Made by a program: the position numbers and the translations under genes
Part shown: piece after piece, positions 5,614-16,485 of the stretch
Layout: the number at the start of each line of letters is the position of its first letter
How positions within the stretch are numbered: position 1 is the stretch's first letter
Notes under the pieces: model-generated
Seen by the model: only the letters and a program-made list of their open reading frames with translations
What the model was told of the DNA's origin: nothing
Database searches by the model: none
NCBI GenBank assembly: GCA_000004985.1
Contig: GG738878.1
Length of the DNA: 64,000 bases
Strand: one strand, 5' to 3'
From: Naegleria gruberi
Lineage: Eukaryota

Positions 5614-8283
5614 ATGCTTCTCTCTACTTCCAACCCTACACCATCATCACAAGTGACGGTGAAAAAGAGTGGTGAAAATATGTTGTTCAACAATTCAACC
5701 TTCACCAACAACAGCAGCAATACCCCAAACTCTTCAGAAGAGCAAAAAAGTAGTACTAGCCATGTGATTTCATCCTCTTTATCACCTCTTGCACTCCAAC
5801 CAATAACTACAACACCCAACCATCAATCAAAGCCTATGTCTATGGAGGTTTTGTCATCTTCTTATCCACAACAACATGAATCAAAGCCTTCTTCCGATAG
5901 TATCATACCACCACCAAGAATGCAACCTCCAACAACAACAAACTTTCCCATCATTACAAGCTCTAACCCATCTATTCGTTCCACAACAACAGGTCATCCA
6001 ACTTTTCACAGTTCTTTCCCTATTATGACCAATAACTTTTTGGCTCCTCCTCTCTTCTCTTCTTCAAAAATTCATTCTACTAGTTCCGTTCCAACTATTA
6101 CCACCTTACAAAGCTCTTCTGTGAGTCCAAATTCACTAATTTCCTCTATCAATAATACACCAACAAAATCTAGTTTGGATAATGTACCAAAGCCTGTACC
6201 AACTGCTTCCTCAATTCTTGCACCATCACTTTCTCTCATTGAAACAGAGTCTATTTCACCTCAACCTATTAGAGTTTCAACAATTTTGTCCAGTTTTAAT
6301 ACCCCATCCGATTCAAGTAAATCAGCAATAGGTAATAGTAACAATAGTTCAAACTCTCAAACAGAGTCTGTTTCCACAACTACTACTCCAAAGATTACAC
6401 GTGTAAGGAAACTCACACCAAGAAGAGTTCCTGACCTTCCTCTGCAGCAGGAGCAACAAGCTGGTACAACAAAACAAGCAAGTGAGCCAACAACACCAAC
6501 CAAGGAACAACCTACAAGAACAGAAGCTGAATCAAACCCTTTCACTACACTTTATTCTAAACCTCTTTCCTCCTTTCCACTTCATCATCCTTCTTCCTCA
6601 ATGAGTGGCAGCAGTTTTTCACCATTTCCTCCTCCAACATCACATTCCAGATTAGTGAGTCCTTCAACGCCATCACCAATAAGCCTTTGGCCAAGCACTA
6701 CTGTTACAACTAGCACTTCGGCAACACCTAATAAGCATATAGTCCCTCCTCCACTATTACCACCTCTTAATGTTTCTCCTCCCAACACAAAGAAGAGAAG
6801 AACCAATAGCCAAGAAAGCGTAGGAGCCAGTCTTCAGCCATTAACACCATTAACACCACCAACACCATCAGCTCAATTTCCATTCCCTTCAGTTAGATTG
6901 TCAAGTGCTACACCACCACCAGGATATGTTCCTCCTCCTCCTTTCCCTATTTCATCAGCTTCACTTATTCCAGTAGTAAAATCAAATGTGATTGGACCTC
7001 CTGAAAGAAAGGTTTCTAGCAATACTCCACCGCCAGAGGCAAAACCAAAGAAAAAGGAAAATATGGTTGGTTGTAACAGTATCAGAATACCATTCAGATC
7101 TTGGATGAAGACTCTTGATACTCTATCAGCACCAAGCCTTAGAGCTGTACAGGAACGAGTCACCCAATTGTTGGAAAAGAAGGAAGAAGAAAAGAAGAAG
7201 AATCTACTAGCAAAGCAACAGAAACAAGAAACATCCTCTTCTTCAAATCGAACAACCAAATTGAGTTGTAGTAACGATACTTTGTCATTACTCTCTACAG
7301 ACTTATCTAGTATTGATACGCTTGCTATTCTTGCATTGGCTGATTCACCTCCTTCTCCTACTTTGGCTAAATCTAGTGAACTGATATCTGAATCTGTTGA
7401 ACTATTCTCTAAAAGTCCAGATAAATCAATGATGATTGAATCTGATGATTCTGAGGAGGAATCTGAGGAAGAAATTGATATTAATCTCAAGATTGCTCAA
7501 GCTGAACCTTTTGTTAGAGAATATTCTGGTAATGGATTTATCTATCCTGGTAGAAGGGGAGCCAAGTCACAACGAGTGAGACTACCAATTTGTTTCTACC
7601 CAAGCATGAAAAGTGTTTTAGCCTCAGAAAGCAGCGCTGAAACATTTGTTGAAGGTGAAGATTCTATCAATCCTGTCATTGATTTGGAGCATCATTTGGA
7701 ATTTTTCATTGACGATTCTGACAGAAAGTTGTATAACTCTATTAGGGGATTGCATCTCGTGCTGCTCAAGAGGATCAGTAAGACTGTCTATATTGAGGAG
7801 AGTAGTGTACTCGTTCAAAGAAGTTCTAGATCAGATGATGGTGGATATAACTTTTCCATTATCAATCAAACAAGTCTCCACCCTCCTTTACCAGGACAAA
7901 GACAAGCCGACTATTCTCTTCTCCTTGTTGAACCAAGAGGTAAACGTAGGAATGCTCAAGATGTCGATAAGGTCAATAGATATTGTGAAATTATTCATGA
8001 ACAAGGCAATCAATGCAAGATTCGTGTTGGATTTAGAATTTGTAAAGCTCAAAAGAAAAAGCATACTAAAGGTGTTTACTTGTTGAGACTAGTAGCTTGT
8101 ATATCCGATGAAGCAGAGATTAAATTTGATTCCTCAAATCAACCAATTAATGGTGTTATGAAAGTATTGGAAGAAAGTGAACTATTCAAGATTGTATCTC
8201 GAAGAGTTACTGCTAACAGTAAGCCAACAGCAAGTCTCAAACGGAAGATGGATGATGATGAAGTAGATTCATCTTCTGAATAA
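5614..8283 (+). CDS. Ser/Thr/Pro-rich low-complexity protein with an acidic stretch and a basic, more complex C-terminal region (about 7440-8283); function unknown
   Basis: 889-aa ATG-initiated ORF. The N-terminal 600 aa are almost entirely S/T/P/N repeats. The C-terminal ~270 aa (GFIYPGRRGAKSQRVRLPICFYP...KIRVGFRICKAQKKKHTKGVYLLRLV) have normal complexity and are basic, which could suggest nucleic-acid binding. No motif confidently recognised. Confidence 0.5.
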   Translation: MLLSTSNPTPSSQVTVKKSGENMLFNNSTFTNNSSNTPNSSEEQKSSTSHVISSSLSPLALQPITTTPNHQSKPMSMEVLSSSYPQQHESKPSSDSIIPPPRMQPPTTTNFPIITSSNPSIRSTTTGHPTFHSSFPIMTNNFLAPPLFSSSKIHSTSSVPTITTLQSSSVSPNSLISSINNTPTKSSLDNVPKPVPTASSILAPSLSLIETESISPQPIRVSTILSSFNTPSDSSKSAIGNSNNSSNSQTESVSTTTTPKITRVRKLTPRRVPDLPLQQEQQAGTTKQASEPTTPTKEQPTRTEAESNPFTTLYSKPLSSFPLHHPSSSMSGSSFSPFPPPTSHSRLVSPSTPSPISLWPSTTVTTSTSATPNKHIVPPPLLPPLNVSPPNTKKRRTNSQESVGASLQPLTPLTPPTPSAQFPFPSVRLSSATPPPGYVPPPPFPISSASLIPVVKSNVIGPPERKVSSNTPPPEAKPKKKENMVGCNSIRIPFRSWMKTLDTLSAPSLRAVQERVTQLLEKKEEEKKKNLLAKQQKQETSSSSNRTTKLSCSNDTLSLLSTDLSSIDTLAILALADSPPSPTLAKSSELISESVELFSKSPDKSMMIESDDSEEESEEEIDINLKIAQAEPFVREYSGNGFIYPGRRGAKSQRVRLPICFYPSMKSVLASESSAETFVEGEDSINPVIDLEHHLEFFIDDSDRKLYNSIRGLHLVLLKRISKTVYIEESSVLVQRSSRSDDGGYNFSIINQTSLHPPLPGQRQADYSLLLVEPRGKRRNAQDVDKVNRYCEIIHEQGNQCKIRVGFRICKAQKKKHTKGVYLLRLVACISDEAEIKFDSSNQPINGVMKVLEESELFKIVSRRVTANSKPTASLKRKMDDDEVDSSSE

Positions 8284-8961: not shown

Positions 8962-10767
8962 ATGCTTTCTCTAGATTCACCCAAACATCAGCAACAACAC
9001 CATGATGATATCTATCTGCAGGATTTCAACAATGATGGCGAACATTATTCGAATAATAGAAATCATCATCAACAACAATTTTATTACAATTCACCTCCCA
9101 TTACAACAACAAATATTCTCAACGAGTCGACAAGTAGTGTTGCCTCTAATTTAATAACATCATCACCCGATCACAATAATTTAAATGATGGAATAAGTGG
9201 CAGATTTTCCAACAAATCAAATTCCTCCTCTCAACAAGCTTTATTTTCCTCATCACCCCAAAACAATAAGAATAGAAAAAACAATTCAAAACAACAATCA
9301 ACGAAAGAATTTAAGGATCGTTTACTAAATTTAAAAGCAGCAGAATCCAAAGATCAACCCAGTGAAATTTATAGGAATCTCACAAAGCGAGAGAGGTTTA
9401 ATATAACGTGTTGTGGAGTGGTTGTGGCAGGTGTGGTGGTGATTGTCTTGACAATACTGACTGTATTTGTAGTTTATTATTTGGAGGTGTATCGGATTGA
9501 TTCGAATAGGAGGATGGGTTATGAGAAAGTGGAACTTGCTGAGAGAAATATTGGTAAACAACTTACAAAAACATTTAATTCATTGTTGGTAATGAGGGAT
9601 CAAGCGCAGAATTGGAATTATTCAATTAGTTTGGAAAAGTTTAATGGACTTTCGGCTAGATTAGCTTGGGGACATCATGAAGTTTACAATTTCGAATATG
9701 CAATTGGAGAAAATGCATCACTGGATTATGTCTATCCTCCAGTGGATGCTGTTTATGGATTACAAATGGGAGCTGACTCATCAACTCACAAATCAGCCAT
9801 GAATGAAGCCATCCAAAAAAACGAAACTACAATTTTTGGACCTATTTCACTAATTGAGGGTGGAGTAGCTGTCATTGCTCAACATCCAATATTTTATTTG
9901 AATGGAAGTTTTTTTGGATTTGCTGTCGAGCTCTGTAGAGTTGACCAATTATTCAATTCGATTAATTTTACAGGACTTTTACAAGGTTATCAATATCAAT
10001 TATTTGATTATTATAGAAATTCTGTGTTTTTACAAAGTTTGGATGGACATTCAGAGTTTGAACCAACGATTGAAAGAAATGTTTCAATCATTTCTGATAG
10101 TATTTATGCGAATATTTCAGTTTATAATTGTAGATGGAAGATTATTCTTCGACCTGTCAATGGATGGGACTCTAATTCAATTTTGTGGCTTGAGATATTG
10201 ATTGCCTTACTGATTATTTTTTTACCGTCCATAACTATTGGTGTTTTGGCATCAGTTGTTGTTAATTCATGTAATTGGTTAGGTAATCATGGAAAGGTGG
10301 CGGATGTTTTGGATAAAGTCAGAAATCAACACGTAAAAAAAGAGCAGAAAAAGGCCATGCTTAAGGAGGATTGGGAAGCATGTTGTGAGTGTTTTAATGA
10401 GAGAACTGACAAGATTCAAAGAATTGTTAATCATTTACCAATGGCTGCAATTTCAGCCTCTCTGGATGGAAAAATTTATTCTGTGAATGCGGCCTTGACG
10501 AAATATTTTGGCTATGATTCGAATAGAATCCTAGAAATTAAGCTCAATGATATGTTTGTGGATTTTAATATTAAGGAAATATATAATAATCGAAAGGGAA
10601 AAGGCCATTTCACACACTCGGCAACAATCATGTCAACAAATCAAGAAGCACACCAAGTAATAATTAATATTTTATTTAGCGAGAATTCTAAGGAAGTATC
10701 AGTTCTGATTTTCATTCCTTGCTTGGACAAGGGGGAAAAAAGTACAAGTTTGGAAACAGTTGATTAA
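8962..10767 (+). CDS. Membrane protein with CHASE-like extracellular sensor domain and cytoplasmic PAS-like domain; no output domain detected
   Basis: 601 aa. N-terminal N/Q/S-rich tail, then a TM helix (ITCCGVVVAGVVVIVLTILTVFVVYYL). A ~230-aa extracytoplasmic region follows, with CHASE-like hallmarks (FGPISLIEGGVAVIAQHPIFY, N-glycosylation sites). Then a second TM (ILWLEILIALLIIFLPSITIGVLASVVV) and a PAS-like segment (LPMAAISASLDGKIYSVNAALTKYFGYDSNRILEIKLNDMF). The domain calls come from motif memory, not a search. Confidence 0.5.
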   Translation: MLSLDSPKHQQQHHDDIYLQDFNNDGEHYSNNRNHHQQQFYYNSPPITTTNILNESTSSVASNLITSSPDHNNLNDGISGRFSNKSNSSSQQALFSSSPQNNKNRKNNSKQQSTKEFKDRLLNLKAAESKDQPSEIYRNLTKRERFNITCCGVVVAGVVVIVLTILTVFVVYYLEVYRIDSNRRMGYEKVELAERNIGKQLTKTFNSLLVMRDQAQNWNYSISLEKFNGLSARLAWGHHEVYNFEYAIGENASLDYVYPPVDAVYGLQMGADSSTHKSAMNEAIQKNETTIFGPISLIEGGVAVIAQHPIFYLNGSFFGFAVELCRVDQLFNSINFTGLLQGYQYQLFDYYRNSVFLQSLDGHSEFEPTIERNVSIISDSIYANISVYNCRWKIILRPVNGWDSNSILWLEILIALLIIFLPSITIGVLASVVVNSCNWLGNHGKVADVLDKVRNQHVKKEQKKAMLKEDWEACCECFNERTDKIQRIVNHLPMAAISASLDGKIYSVNAALTKYFGYDSNRILEIKLNDMFVDFNIKEIYNNRKGKGHFTHSATIMSTNQEAHQVIINILFSENSKEVSVLIFIPCLDKGEKSTSLETVD

Positions 10768-10784
10768 TTCAATTACAAACTTAT

Positions 10785-13700
10785 TTACCACCAATCAGAA
10801 CCAACATTGGAAACTTCTTCAGAGACTGAATTAAAGTTCTTTGTGACTGCCTTGCTTGCTGATGCAAATAAACCTTCGTTGAGTTCATTTTCCAAATCAC
10901 GATGGAAACGATCAGTGATTGGTCTTGTAACAAATTTGAGGTGGAAGGAATAAGTATCCTTTGGCATAACTTTGACCTTTTCTTGTGCCTCCTTTTGGAG
11001 AGTTGCAACTGGGTCAGGTAATAATGAGAACAAAATCTTTTCAAAATTCAAACAGAATTTTTCAAAAGCTTGCTTATTCTCTTTCGTCTTGGAGAACAAC
11101 ATTCCTTTCCACTTGAGTTCCTTTCTGTATTTAGTAATGACCAAGTAGAGAGTTTCAGCAATAACTTTGCAGTGTGGATGACTCTTATATTCGTTAATGT
11201 TTGTTTCAAAGTCCTTCAAGATGACGGATGTATATCTTCCAATTTCATTCTTATAGCTAATTTCCAAGAGCATGTAATAATTAAGGGACCAAATGATAGG
11301 ATGGACATAGTTAACAACAGCACCTCTTTCTTCAGTAAAGAGTGCAGTCTTTAACCATTCAGTTGGTTGTTTCAAAAGTTTCAACTTTCTTTCGAGTGGA
11401 AGTGAAAATATGATAGTATTGAACAATCTACCAAAGTTTGAGCTTACCAAAAATTGGTTGGAAGTCAAATTGTTTTGTGAATCGATAACCAAAAAGTTTT
11501 GAGAATTACCACCTGTTGAAGGGATAAAGAATAAGGAATCGCAAACTGTTGTTGGTAATTCCTTATATTTGGCAGTGCCTAAGGTTGTTTTAGAGAGAGC
11601 TCCACTCTTTTGAGGATTGAACTTGAGGGCATGTGAAGTGTATACTCTGCTTGGGGCCTTTTTCAAGAGTGTTTTTTGAATGTAATCAGTACACTTTCTA
11701 GCCAAGTTACTTTCACCTGGGGTTGAGAGTAAGAACATTTCTTTTAGTTCGGTTTGAGGAATGACATGACCCTTGCATGGCACAAAAAGTCTAGTCTTGA
11801 ACTTTTCAGCATCTACATTACCAATGAAAATTACACCACCTTCTGTTGGCTTTGTATTCTCCTCTTTCCAAGTTGGTCCTCTCAATAATTGTAACAAATC
11901 AGCAGAATCCATATATTGATCATCTCCTTGATTGAACATTGGATGAACAATGAGTTTACCTTCAAATCCACCATTTACCCATGTGATAGGATGTCTATCC
12001 TTTGTTCCTCTCACATAGGATATTCCACCATATCGCTCAATATCCCAAATGTTAACACTAAGTCCCAATCCTTCAAATATCTTGATGTAACATAAAAACT
12101 CAGGTCTTTGAATTTGCTTATCAGTAAAGAATAATACATCGAATGGATTTTGACCTGGTACAGTAGGGAAATAATTTGGAGTCAAACGGATCATACTTTC
12201 AAGGTTTTCAATTTTCTTTCCTCTAAGATGAAGACTAACTTTGAATGGAATAATTTCAAAGAATTGTGCAATATCATTAATTTCAACTTGGAAACTTCTA
12301 GAGTAGGTCATACCAGCTTGAATAAAAGGTATATCTTCTTCAATTCCATTTACTCCATTCAAACCAGGCTCATTATGAACAATAAATCTAGGATCAAATA
12401 CAATATTAAGTTTCAAGTGTTGTCTCTCGCCGACAGTAGAACCATAATTCATCATGGAAATATTCTTAAATGTAACAGTAACAGTGCCTCTCTCTGTTCT
12501 TCCCAACTGTGGTGGAGCAAAAATAGCCTCAAATTGAATTGGGTATTGAATAATGTAGTCATTCTTAAGGAAGGCACCTGGGAATGGTGATGTAAGAAGG
12601 GTTGCAGATGATTGGACTGGGAGAATTGACTTGTAAGGTCCAACACCCATAGGTTCTGGTGTATCAGAGATGGTACCAAAGAATTGGAATGGTATTGTGA
12701 AAATTCCTCCAGGAAGAATAGCTTGATCCAAAACATAAAAAGTATCTGCAGAGAGGAAAGATTGTTGACCTTGAGTACTAGGGAAGGAAATTACTGTTCC
12801 TACTGGCAAAATCATACCACCTTGGTTGGATAAAGTGACAGCAGATACAAATACAGTTTCACCAGGTTCAAAAACTCCATCATCTTCAGTTGCAAAGAGT
12901 TGGAAAGAAGTAACAAACAAATCAAATACAGATGTACCCTGATCCAAAATGTTATTAGTTATTGGATCATAGACACGGAAGAGTAAACTTCCAGGCATGC
13001 CATCTTGACCGTCTTGACCTCCCATACCCCTAAAATTTTTTGAAATTGAATAATGTTTGTTAATAGTTGATACTTACTGTCTTCCTGATTGACCATTTTG
13101 ACCTGATTGACCACTTCTACCATCTGAACCTCTTTCTCCAGAGCTAAGACTTTCACTATCAACAGGTTGCCCTGCAGAACCACCACTACCACCACTGCCT
13201 CCACTGCCACCACTACCGCCATGACCACCACTACCACCACATCCTGGATCACCTCCGTAACCTCTTCTACCAGCCCTACATTCAGCTTGAACAAATTTTA
13301 AAAGGGCTGGATTATGTGTTTCAATAACTACACTTCCACCACTTCCTCCATTTCCTCCACTATTGGATTTAAAATTAATTGAGTCTATAAGAAACTTACT
13401 TGGCTCCATTTCCACCACTAATAATTGTTGAATAAATTATATGCAACTTTCCAATACTTACTCTGCACCATCTCCACCACTATTAAAATAATAAAATTTA
13501 ATTGAACTAGCTCACAAATACTTACTTTCCACCACTATTTTCAAAAAATTAATATTCCAAAAATGAAAACATTTCCAAAACTTACTTTCCACCACTAAAT
13601 GCATTTCATTAGTAAACTTTGATTTCTAAATACTTACTCTCCACCACTAGATACATTTAAATTCACAACTAATTCTAGTAATACTTACTCTCCACCATCC

Positions 13701-14430
13701 CCTCCATTACAACCTTTATTACCAGATTTACCACTACCTCCACTACCACCGCTTCCACCACTTCCACCATTGCCACCACTTCCTCCACTACCACCATGAC
13801 CACCACTAAATTTTGAATGAATTATTATCATGCATGAATAGATTACCAGTACTTACTCGCCACCATCTCCTCCATTTGCCAAAAAGACCAAAACCTTTCC
13901 AGCTCCATCATCCAAACACAATGTTTCATTAGCAGTACCACTCACAACAATGGACTTGTGGTTAACTCCTTCAATTGTCACTTTAATATTACCAGCGCTC
14001 TGTGCACTAGTTCCACTTGTACCACTTCATGAAATAATGATCAATAAAAAGGGTGTCCCAATTACTGCTACTACTTACTGCTCACCATGTGTTGCTCTTC
14101 CTCCGCTGGAATATATTAGTATTTCAAACAAATCATTGCTACTTACTGACTACCATTGGTACCATTACCACCTCTCTGACCACTAGAACCCCAAGAACCA
14201 GAATTTCCACTCTATTTCATCATGATGATAAAAAAACAATGATATCCTATGGATGATACTTACACTTCCCCAACTTCCTGAATGCCCACTATTAATAATA
14301 AGAAAAATAATGATCATCATCAAATAGTATAAACATTTTCATGTTATCCAATAAAAACCCACCTAAAACCCGAAACACCCGAAATTCCAGGTTTCCCAGA
14401 AACGTCTACTATAATTGAATTTTTGAGCAT
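10785..14430 (-). CDS. Glycine-rich repeat protein with a micro-exon array and a large C-terminal domain of unknown function (multi-exon; 5' end uncertain)
   Basis: The 3' exon 10785..~13033 (746-aa ORF) is joined upstream to many small exons. These include 9-nt exons (TGGTGGAGA / TGGTGGAAA) at ~13637-13645, ~13586-13594 and ~13526-13534, and 18-nt exons at ~13462-13479 and ~13401-13418. Each has gtaagt donors (seen as 'acttac' on the + strand) and (t)ag acceptors. Larger Gly/Ser-rich exons lie at ~13069-13365, ~13690-13810 and ~13850-14030, with further small exons up to a candidate ATG near 14430. The encoded repeats are DGGE/DGGK/NGGDGAE/GGSGGSGG. The track ORFs 13074..13418 and 12959..13294 are pieces or alternate frames of this gene. 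Confidence 0.55.
13395..13700 (-). repeat. Tandem array of ~60-bp genomic units, each = one 9- or 18-nt Gly-codon micro-exon + ~45-nt intron (part of the Gly-rich gene)
   Basis: The + strand shows the periodic motif (a)tacttac-t(c/t)tccaccact at ~13401, 13462, 13526, 13586 and 13637. This is the reverse complement of ag|TGGTGGA(G/A)A|gtaagta. Confidence 0.6.
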
Positions 14431-14829
14431 TTTTTTTTGCTTTTTAAAAAATTGGATTTTCAACGATGAAACCCCGCCAATTTCCTTCTTTAGAACCGTA
14501 ATTCACAGGAACAAAGTAGGAACATTTACAGCCATTTGTTATCCTTTGCGAATATTTCAATTGTGTTGTGTGTAACACTTGCAAATGTGAGGACGTTGAA
14601 GTTCGCTTGGTTGTGGCAATAGATATATCTCCATGTTGGCCAGATTGTTATTTTTCAATTTCAAAATTGAATTATTGCTTAACTGTTCGCCTTACTTTGG
14701 GCTTGAATAAGGATTTACTGGTCATTAAAGCAAAGGAAAACTTAATTTCTCATCATCTGTTGTGGTTTTGAGTCTATTTCATCTTTGATTGTAAATTCCA
14801 TTAAAAAATAAAAATCAGAATTAAAAAAA

Positions 14830-16485
14830 ATGGATGCATTGTGTTTGGAATTGATCTTTTCCTACTGTTTACCTCATAGTATATTTTCGGTGTGTAGTTT
14901 GGTGTGTAGAGAGTGGTCCGAGTTGATCCGATCAAGAGATTTCTTCAAAAGATATTCGAAAATGAAAATGCGATCTGTGGTGGGACCTTTTAATTGGATT
15001 GAAATGATGAGTTGTGTCGATTATGAATTTTATGAATTAATTTCATCCTTTTTATATTCGGTCAAGTCTGAAAATTGTCGAATTTTACCAAATCACATTC
15101 AAATAATGGTTCCATCGAGTGATCACGATCGGAAATATTTAATTTTCTATGATCGGGAAGAGAAACTCTATAGAATATTGAAAGATGAGAAAGATGAAAT
15201 GATTCCCTATCATGAAGAGGATGATGGAATGGGTAAAATTAAAGAGCTTGTGAAGAGTGCAAAGGTAGTTTCGGCTAAAATTAATTCAGAAACTTTCTAT
15301 TCGGTTGATCTTATGCATACCCATACGGAGTGTCAGCAAGAAGGCTTGGAATGGTTGTTGCAACAGCAAACAAAATATTTCGACCATATTCCTACGGAAT
15401 TCTTTTTCAGTATTTTGGATTTTCACACAAATCCATCAAGTTTTAGGTTTGACAGATTTTGTATAGGAGGGGAGTTGTTAAATGCGTTGAAACATGAAAA
15501 AATTCTGCCTGAATCCCATAATACTCAATTCAAGCATTTCAATGTAACAAAAATTGGAACCAAAGCTTCAAATTTGTGGAATTATCCTTACGAAGGAGCA
15601 CTGGAGAGATTGTTCAATAGAGGTAAATTGAGTAATGAGTTGGGAATTGATTTGATTCATAGAGGATTTGAAATTTCAATGCGTACATTGATTTCAAAAG
15701 ATTCTCAATTGGCTCTTGATCTAACAGTTGAATATTGTAAAGTGAATCAAATTGATTTGTTGAGGAAGATTGCCATGAAAGATCATGTTCATATTACAAA
15801 CGCTGTGGAAATGTTTTACTATTTCACATGTTGCGTTTTTCAAATTCCTATCTGGCTCTATTCTCCTTCTAATAGATGGATTGATTATATCAAAAATTTG
15901 GATTCTAATATTCATTTTCCATTTGCTTCAAAATGTGAAACTCTATCAGAAGAATTACAAATGCCAAGAGTCTGCCTCCTTGCTAAGAAATCCCTTCAAG
16001 ATTCCTCTTATGGAAGAATTCAATTGGACAGACTATCTTACATTACGAAGAATTATGTAAAATCTGTGAATATTCAATATATCGAAGAAGATTTAGTGCA
16101 ATACGATAAACTCAATGAGGAATTTTCACACTATGACTGTATCATATATTGCGTGGAGAGATTAGATACCAGTACTAATAACAAAGAAGAGAAAGGAATT
16201 GATTTTAATGTGTTGAAACATTTGGCTGAAAGTGGAAAGAGAATTTGCTTTATGTTTAAAATAGAGAATTTGAAAAACTTCCCAAAATCACCAATTCCAT
16301 TACTGAAACATGTCAAATGTGGTCTATTTGAGTTTTCTGAACGAAACATTCACACTCTCATTACAGGACGAGATATAGACATTAAGGAAACTAAATATAA
16401 GGGTGTTGATCCTTGTCCACCTCCACCAACTCAAAACAATGATGATGATGAAGAAGAAGAATATTATTCTAGCATCTTTTATTAA
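14830..16485 (+). CDS. F-box-like domain protein with acidic C-terminus
   Basis: 551 aa. The N-terminal LELIFSYCLPHSIFSVCSLVCREWSELIRSRDFFKRY matches the F-box pattern (L..I...L....L..C..VCK.W). The C-terminus is DDDEEEEYYSSIFY. Its stop is 22 nt from the stop of the convergent NmrA-like gene. Confidence 0.5.
   Translation: MDALCLELIFSYCLPHSIFSVCSLVCREWSELIRSRDFFKRYSKMKMRSVVGPFNWIEMMSCVDYEFYELISSFLYSVKSENCRILPNHIQIMVPSSDHDRKYLIFYDREEKLYRILKDEKDEMIPYHEEDDGMGKIKELVKSAKVVSAKINSETFYSVDLMHTHTECQQEGLEWLLQQQTKYFDHIPTEFFFSILDFHTNPSSFRFDRFCIGGELLNALKHEKILPESHNTQFKHFNVTKIGTKASNLWNYPYEGALERLFNRGKLSNELGIDLIHRGFEISMRTLISKDSQLALDLTVEYCKVNQIDLLRKIAMKDHVHITNAVEMFYYFTCCVFQIPIWLYSPSNRWIDYIKNLDSNIHFPFASKCETLSEELQMPRVCLLAKKSLQDSSYGRIQLDRLSYITKNYVKSVNIQYIEEDLVQYDKLNEEFSHYDCIIYCVERLDTSTNNKEEKGIDFNVLKHLAESGKRICFMFKIENLKNFPKSPIPLLKHVKCGLFEFSERNIHTLITGRDIDIKETKYKGVDPCPPPPTQNNDDDEEEEYYSSIFY

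Follow-up and report, generated by a model that had tools for sequence, protein, structure and literature searches.

We analysed a gene on the minus strand of a 64,000-nucleotide stretch of Naegleria gruberi DNA (contig GG738878.1), and this whole stretch is called the window in the following. The gene is best understood as a genuine N. gruberi member of the DUF7932 family, in which ancient and constitutively spliced coding micro-exons contribute to a folded, intracellular glycine-rich module. We put the probability of this reading at about 0.8.

The micro-exon array and its counterparts in related loci

The gene model was obtained by reading the minus strand of 10500-15500 and chaining the GTAAGT donors to the nearest AG acceptors. 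It comprises 13 exons that are open from the ATG at 14430 to the TAA at 10785, with 3060 coding nucleotides (nt) for 1019 amino acids (Table 1). As the original prediction had proposed from the letters of the sequence, glycine-rich micro-exon repeats and a large C-terminal region are joined in a single gene. The 11 GTAAGT donors in the gene stretch 14263-13077, about 1.2 kb (13077-14263), make up 11 of the 25 minus-strand GTAAGT hexamers of the 64-kb window.

Exons 7 to 11 are five back-to-back micro-exons of 9, 9, 9, 18 and 18 nt, each lying between a TAG acceptor and a GTAAGT donor and with all junctions in phase 2, exactly as had been predicted. The exon starts in this region are spaced 52, 60, 55, 62 and 58 bp apart, the introns around the micro-exons have 40-51 nt and those of the whole gene 40-74 nt. 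The motif AG-TGGWGGARA-GTAAGT was found 3 times in the window, where 0.00 occurrences were expected from 100 shuffles. Each micro-exon is symmetric, beginning and ending in phase 2, and has a length that is a multiple of 9 nt. The predicted spliced 63-nt string is TGGTGGAGA-TGGTGGAAA-TGGTGGAAA-TGGTGGAGATGGTGCAGA-TGGTGGAAATGGAGCCAA, flanked by ...GGGGATGGTGGAGA and TGGAGGAAATGGAGG..., and encodes GGD, GGN, GGN, GGDGAD and GGNGAN in phase. The junction codons are GAT (D) or AAT (N), since they consist of the two bases at the end of one exon and the T of the next, and the earlier reading of the peptides as DGGE/DGGK was therefore wrong. The 63 nt contribute 21 residues to the central part of a tract of 75, residues 113-187, which is built of 25 unbroken Gly-X-Y triplets across six splice junctions; the sequence had been described as not strict Gly-X-Y, which does not apply here. 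In the whole protein the uninterrupted Gly-X-Y tracts have 15, 25, 12 and 12 triplets.

Upstream of the array, the predicted series of small exons up to ~14400 was recovered as exons of 27, 65, 25 and 68 nt that reach the ATG at 14430. The start of exon 1, its phase-2 intron site and the N-terminal peptide were matched in four related loci, including the N. lovaniensis protein (MDLRVVIDKSGRKGQDG). The equivalent of exon 2 has 25 nt in three of these loci (L002, L003 and L020) and 28 nt in the fourth (L019). A divergent neighbouring gene starts at 14830, only 400 bp from the start of the target gene, so there is no room for more 5' exons.

Table 1. Exons, domains and repeat tract of the N. gruberi gene in window coordinates, followed by the micro-exon arrays and array intron positions (residues counted back from the conserved strand) at the compared loci
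Feature	Position or locus	Strand	Length or residues	Remarks
exon 1	14363..14430	(-)	68 nt	ATG at 14430; encodes MLKNSIIVDVSGKPGISGVSGF; donor GTGGGT; phase 2
exon 2	14264..14288	(-)	25 nt	phase 0 at end
exon 3	14147..14211	(-)	65 nt	Gly-X-Y tract; Pfam Collagen repeat match, residues 12-69
exon 4	14079..14105	(-)	27 nt	phase 2
exon 5	13857..14024	(-)	168 nt	conserved beta-strand segment (IKVTIEG...VLVFLAN) and start of (Gly-X-Y)25
exon 6	13689..13805	(-)	117 nt	GGx repeats; 9-bp periodicity at 13730-13808 (Tandem Repeats Finder)
micro-exon 7	13638..13646	(-)	9 nt	TGGTGGAGA; GGD; homologous intron positions in four other loci
micro-exon 8	13586..13594	(-)	9 nt	TGGTGGAAA; GGN; homologous intron positions elsewhere
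micro-exon 9	13526..13534	(-)	9 nt	TGGTGGAAA; GGN; homologous intron positions elsewhere
micro-exon 10	13462..13479	(-)	18 nt	GGDGAD
micro-exon 11	13400..13417	(-)	18 nt	GGNGAN
exon 12	13078..13359	(-)	282 nt	end of Gly tract, conserved strand/helix VVIETHNPALLKFVQAEC, second GGx tract, collagen-like Gly-X-Y tract
exon 13	10785..13029	(-)	2245 nt incl. stop	C-terminal region with 746-aa open reading frame (ORF)
(Gly-X-Y)25 tract	13332..13873	(-)	residues 113-187	spans six introns
DUF7932 (PF25560) domain	12543..12920	(-)	protein residues 309-434	
tandem beta-sandwich (Ig-like) domains	12156..12980	(-)	ORF residues 16-290	
alpha/beta domain	11736..12137	(-)	ORF residues 297-430	predicted model
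C-terminal helical domain	10830..11438	(-)	ORF residues 530-732	predicted model
micro-exon array	L002		18, 9, 9, 18, 18 nt	
micro-exon array	L003		9, 9, 9, 9, 18, 18 nt	
micro-exon array	L019		9, 9, 9, 9, 18 nt and a 5-nt exon	
micro-exon array	L020 (paralogue)		18, 9, 9, 18, 18 nt	
intron positions	window			30, 27, 24, 21, 15, 9
intron positions	L002 and paralogue			33, 27, 24, 21, 15, 9
intron positions	L003			33, 30, 27, 24, 21, 15, 9
intron positions	annotated N. lovaniensis model			27, 24, 21, 18, 15, 9, 7

The array was compared with four further loci. L002 and L003 are orthologous metagenomic loci for which gene models were built here, and L002 is syntenic with respect to the CHASE-like gene that neighbours the target gene. 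L019 is the N. lovaniensis contig PYSW02000015.1 with the gene C9374_002317, onto which the annotated protein XP_044550565.1 (P0005) was threaded. L020 is a metagenomic contig that is near-identical to the N. gruberi paralogue XP_002679508.1 (NAEGRDRAFT_79042; 1 mismatch in 330 residues), and the structure of the paralogue was read from it. The last array intron lies 9 residues ahead of the conserved strand in all five loci, and the array introns are always in phase 2, at GGA-RA/T-GGT-GG (intron at the slash), spaced 3 or 6 codons apart. Both Naegleria relatives carry micro-exon arrays with the phase and intron positions of the window, at 37-38% (N. lovaniensis) and 29% (paralogue) identity to the window protein. 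Differences were seen at single sites: the intron at position 33 is lacking in the window, and two additional introns of N. lovaniensis lie at 18 and 7, the second of which leads to a 5-nt exon. With the same intron positions in orthologues and paralogue, the array is by this comparison ancient, and its differences between the genes are read as single intron losses or gains.

The length of the encoded tract bears directly on the use of the micro-exons. Between the two conserved strands, the window, L002 and L003 all have a Gly tract of exactly 75 residues, and distant relatives have one of 67-78. Without the five micro-exons the tract of the window protein would shrink to 54 residues, and because the length of 75 is kept, the micro-exons are most likely included and, judged from the comparison, most likely spliced constitutively. 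Apart from cDNA, no evidence would speak more strongly for their inclusion than this constant length. The array had also been called a ready substrate for exon-number variation. The exon number does vary among the relatives, but since the tract length is fixed and the sites are homologous, this reflects the presence or absence of introns and not the copy number of a repeat.

The N. lovaniensis gene models were made with BRAKER1 and RNA sequencing (RNA-seq) hints (PMC6125883). Ab initio gene prediction would rarely propose exons as short as 9 or 5 nt, so these probably had read support, which would count as indirect transcript support only. The annotated model requires the 5-nt exon (TGGAG) at 2912-2916 of L019, between introns of 47 and 84 nt. 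Its 180-nt intron at 2667-2846 holds an in-frame candidate 18-nt exon, TGGGGGCTCAGGTGGCGA, at 2727-2744, with the acceptor cacAG and the donor GTAGGT. Inclusion of this exon extends the N. lovaniensis Gly tract from 69 to 75 residues and makes the intron positions equal to those of L003. An 18-nt micro-exon was thus probably missed in the public model, or else it is skipped. In the library searched, no paper on DUF7932 or on nuclear micro-exons in Naegleria was found, and the public models of one orthologue and one paralogue already hold such micro-exons implicitly.

In several distant relatives the whole Gly-rich module is contained in one uninterrupted ORF, which identifies it as coding. The Gly-rich region is intron-free in the distant homologues L005-L007, L009 and L012. 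In another distant homologue (L008, 4100-4480; ~28% identity, guanine-cytosine (GC) content 0.38), exons of apparently ~19 and ~12 nt were seen by eye in the Gly-rich region.

The splicing of 9-nt exons would be plausible with the short flanking introns and the near-consensus GTAAGT...TAG sites. Each intron would be recognised as a unit (intron definition), and the exon length would then not be limiting. If the Gly tract forms a polyproline II (PPII) helix, with three residues per turn, one 9-nt exon would encode one turn of the 75-residue (Gly-X-Y)25 tract that is set between the two conserved beta-strands.

The micro-exons might instead form an array of cassettes that are alternatively included, giving isoforms whose Gly tracts differ by 3 or 6 residues and tuning the length of a PPII-type module. 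Any subset of the five symmetric exons keeps the frame and the Gly-X-Y register, and the RNA-seq-guided N. lovaniensis model does without the in-frame 18-nt candidate. We regard such regulation as unlikely, since the tract of exactly 75 residues in three orthologues, within 67-78 residues family-wide, fits full inclusion only, and since consensus GTAAGT is present at all donors, which does not point to weak and regulated exons.

Comparable series of tiny symmetric exons, which can be skipped without loss of the frame, are known from the micro-exon genes (MEGs) of Schistosoma, with exons of 3-81 bp (bioRxiv 10.1101/2023.06.21.545858). MEGs consist mostly of micro-exons, have introns of up to 5 kb and secreted products, and their variants are thought to be made by skipping. 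In contrast, the Naegleria gene has 63 of its 3060 coding nt in micro-exons and flanking introns of 40-51 nt, its protein is apparently intracellular and the length conservation favours constitutive inclusion. The gene thus shares the symmetric micro-exons of MEGs, but not the mostly micro-exonic coding sequence, the long introns or the secreted product.

The DUF7932 region and the glycine-rich module

The C-terminal region, which the original prediction had regarded as unassignable, could be placed in a family by a hidden Markov model search. PF25560 (DUF7932) matched residues 309-434 over profile positions 2-130 of 130, scoring 53.7 bits where the cut-off is 27 (E 3.7e-14), and it was present in 7 of 7 relatives tested. 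At E<=1e-3, an exhaustive profile search recovered 657 cluster representatives, of which 127 passed E<=1e-30, and many family matches aligned over profile positions ~3-660. Word-indexed searches with the 746-aa ORF alone and with a 10-sequence profile gave three proteins only. Named members of this eukaryotic family are N. lovaniensis XP_044550565.1, N. gruberi XP_002679508.1 and a transcript of Paradermamoeba levis. Two metagenomic proteins, with 55% and 53% identity, come nearest in the collections, and no exact match to the spliced model or to three ORFs of the window was found in the protein collection. The target gene probably lacks an entry in the public N. gruberi protein set, because nothing more than 55% identical was found although two other N. 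gruberi proteins are recorded.

The family has a common N-terminal design, consisting of Gly-X-Y tracts, a strand segment, a long GGx tract, a 'V-x-I-E-T-x-N-P-x-L-L' strand/helix, a further GGx tract and a collagen-like tract. In XP_044550565.1 and XP_002679508.1 the domain order is the same as in the window protein: a short strand, Gly-X-Y, the strand segment, GGx, the 'VVIETxNPxLL' strand/helix, GGx and the collagen-like tract are followed by the DUF7932 beta-sandwiches, the alpha/beta domain and the helical domain.

The C-terminal region encoded by exon 13 was modelled with AlphaFold2 at a mean predicted local distance difference test score (pLDDT) of 91.3 and a predicted template modelling score (pTM) of 0.85, a confident prediction in which tandem beta-sandwiches are followed by the alpha/beta domain and then by the helical domain. 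In its alpha/beta domain the polar residues E309, D328, S336, R344, H345 and D376 are invariant in the family and could form a catalytic or ligand-binding site. No PDB match to this domain was obtained by sequence, and none was among the fold hits listed.

The Gly-rich module was modelled via the full-length N. lovaniensis orthologue with AlphaFold2. The pLDDT was 82-97 over most Gly tracts and 53-54 around residues 241-260, and the Gly tracts contained no DSSP helix or strand. The residues encoded by micro-exons, 157-176 in this model, had mean values of 90-97 in blocks of 10 residues. Strands homologous to those encoded by exon 5 were predicted in the same model, and the PDB fold matches were mostly due to the beta-sandwich domains. 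The model would fit an ordered structure of the PPII type, like that of known Gly-rich PPII bundles. The N-terminal Gly-rich part is most likely a folded module of PPII-type helices and unlikely to be a secreted collagen or a disordered linker.

Bundles of Gly-rich PPII helices are found in the N-terminal domain of Obg, the snow-flea antifreeze protein and the glycine-rich domain of ALK/LTK (bioRxiv 10.1101/2023.11.25.568672). The Naegleria module resembles them in its GGxGGxGG-type sequence, the three-residue periodicity and the short beta-strands interleaved with the Gly tracts, and its motif GGxGGxGGxV-x-x-E...L-x-x-[LF] resembles the Obg sequence; its Gly tracts are much longer (25 triplets) than those of the known domains. 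Membership in the Obg fold was not supported, because no match to PF01018 (GTP1_OBG) was seen at E<=1, the PDB profile search returned no Obg chain, and hhalign gave a probability of only 3.8%.

No hydrophobic N-terminus, signal peptide or transmembrane segment was detected in the protein, which starts with MLKNSIIVDVSGKPG and reaches a maximal Kyte-Doolittle value of 1.3 over 19 residues. Relatives are fused to PH, C2, FYVE, SH3, SAM and WWE domains; among the DUF7932 proteins P0049, P0059, P0045 and P0149, some have three C-terminal FYVE fingers, or PH and SAM, or WWE, SH3 and C2 domains. The protein is therefore probably intracellular and not an extracellular collagen, and the fusions suggest a membrane- or phosphoinositide-associated, intracellular role of the family.

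An extracellular collagen-like structural protein, with an exon pattern that mirrors collagen genes, is accordingly very improbable. It would agree with exon lengths in multiples of 9 nt, with the Gly-X-Y repeats, which match the Pfam Collagen repeat (PF01391) at residues 12-69 just over the cut-off (29.7 against 27.2 bits), and with family profiles that match PDB collagen chains over the Gly-X-Y parts. The X and Y positions are not rich in proline or hydroxyproline, since the first 290 residues contain about 5 prolines (~2%), and Gly predominates at X and D, N or S at Y. The N-terminus, which is not hydrophobic, offers no secretion signal, and the domains fused in the relatives are cytosolic. 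The exons of fibrillar collagen genes (54, 45 and 108 bp) are likewise multiples of 9 bp that encode whole Gly-X-Y triplets. They are in phase 0 with a complete Gly codon first, are 5-12 times longer, and their products are secreted trimers rich in proline and hydroxyproline. The Naegleria exons, in contrast, are in phase 2, have 9 or 18 nt and encode X = Gly with scarce proline. The likeness to collagen genes that had been noted at the outset thus turned out to be superficial.

Several points weigh against the reading of a folded module encoded by constitutive micro-exons. We infer the inclusion of each micro-exon in the N. gruberi mRNA by comparison alone, and the PPII geometry from a high pLDDT without DSSP helix or strand. 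Skipping of any micro-exon would also preserve the frame, as each one is symmetric in phase 2, and the N. lovaniensis model omits the in-frame 18-nt candidate, by skipping or by an annotation miss. The PDB fold searches gave no informative match for the alpha/beta and helical domains, and the hhalign comparison with residues 1-158 of E. coli ObgE covered 25 columns at the low probability given above.

Origin of the array

The micro-exon-like sequences could in principle be relics or chance matches inside a single 329-nt intron at 13360-13688. A direct splice from exon 6 to exon 12 is in frame, and the gene model here rests on genomic sequence. This explanation is hardly credible: the micro-exon motif occurs 3 times against 0 expected, and across five loci the exons have kept their sequence, phase and position, whereas the introns have diverged. 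The tract would also be 21 residues below any family member, and an intron of 329 nt would be atypical for a gene with introns of 40-74 nt.

A young tandem duplication of a ~60-bp unit of exon and intron, with a copy number that varies by strain or species, has equally little to recommend it. Direct-repeat families at 51-64-bp spacing are present, carried mainly by the exon and the splice-site consensus, and window introns 6 and 7 are alike at the 3' end. Tandem Repeats Finder detected the 9-bp coding periodicity only and no ~60-bp period. The intron cores of the window had a mean identity of 0.58, compared to 0.52 +/- 0.065 after shuffling, and no pair was significant. The coding length is constant, and introns are present or absent at homologous sites even in the ~29%-identical paralogue XP_002679508.1. 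In L002, introns 8 and 9, which come after the two exons of 9 nt, resemble each other significantly (score 32, shuffled maximum 26), so copying of an exon and intron unit or conversion between units does occur in this family. The proposed duplication at the DNA level is therefore supported by this one intron pair of L002 and finds no signal within the window. As a separate observation, introns 1 and 3 of L002 (940-976 and 1101-1141) have a 20-nt motif, AATCATTGTGTTGA(C)CAATT, in common, with a local score of 33 against a shuffled maximum of 26.

Since the tract has the same length as in the intron-less relatives, introns that were added to or spread within an existing repeat are favoured over the amplification of a unit. 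Tentatively, and with odds clearly below even, introns may have propagated along a coding repeat of the (GGT GGA GAT)n type at exact 9-nt intervals, which correspond to one PPII turn. The pooled intron positions of the five loci are 33, 30, 27, 24, 21, 18, 15 and 9 before the conserved strand; if introns propagated in 9-nt steps, these positions imply that the ancestral gene had six or seven 9-nt exons in a row, if not more, and that single intron losses later thinned this series. An intron would have been copied into identical junction motifs via reverse splicing or gene conversion between repeats. The fifteen 9-nt exons found in these loci have TGGTGGARA in common, and 14 of the 15 agree at two synonymous sites, which suggests that the exon sequence is under constraint or homogenised, though the exons are not independent and this can serve only as a lead. 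Under propagation, the near-invariant TGGTGGARA would have been kept by selection because the exon serves as a splicing signal in its own right. If this account were true, the array would be a natural system for the minimal exon size under intron definition and for motif-directed intron gain.

Genomic context and significance

The whole window is from N. gruberi, and the dictyostelid origin assumed in the original prediction had to be rejected: the minus-strand ORF 887-2851 (654 aa) is identical over its full length (100%) to the NCBI entry 'abc transporter [Naegleria gruberi]', with the next matches in N. lovaniensis and N. fowleri at 67%. The GC content of ~35%, the long intron-free ORFs and the compact gene spacing of the window agree with this origin. 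The intron density of the target gene, already pointed out as unusual, makes it an outlier for its genome, as the rest of the window consists mostly of long uninterrupted ORFs.

A CHASE-like gene at 8962-10767 (+) is convergent with the target gene, tail-to-tail with 18 bp between the stop codons. It is syntenic in L002 (4486-6675) with 38% identity and was not detected at the N. lovaniensis locus. Plus-strand ORFs of the gene region are short and overlap the coding exons, and no RNA family was found by Rfam in 10000-15500. Unrelated to the array, an 889-aa Ser/Thr/Pro-rich ORF at 5614-8283 (+) explains the strong negative GC skew at 5-7 kb.

Work on micro-exons has usually dealt with single, regulated cassettes of animals and plants, or with schistosome MEGs, whose exons generate variants. 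The Naegleria array, in a protist with few introns, is a series of 9-nt exons between introns of ~40-60 nt that is conserved across species and paralogues. With respect to gene finding, the N. gruberi protein set apparently has no entry for the gene, and one 18-nt exon is probably wanting in the model of N. lovaniensis. For splicing, the array is a compact natural case in which to ask how the spliceosome deals with a series of exons that are shorter than its own footprint, and for intron evolution it provides a case for introns that arise or spread inside coding repeats. As regards protein structure, the gene draws attention to a widespread, unstudied and probably intracellular family, in which the N-terminal module may represent a new and long glycine-rich fold of the PPII type.

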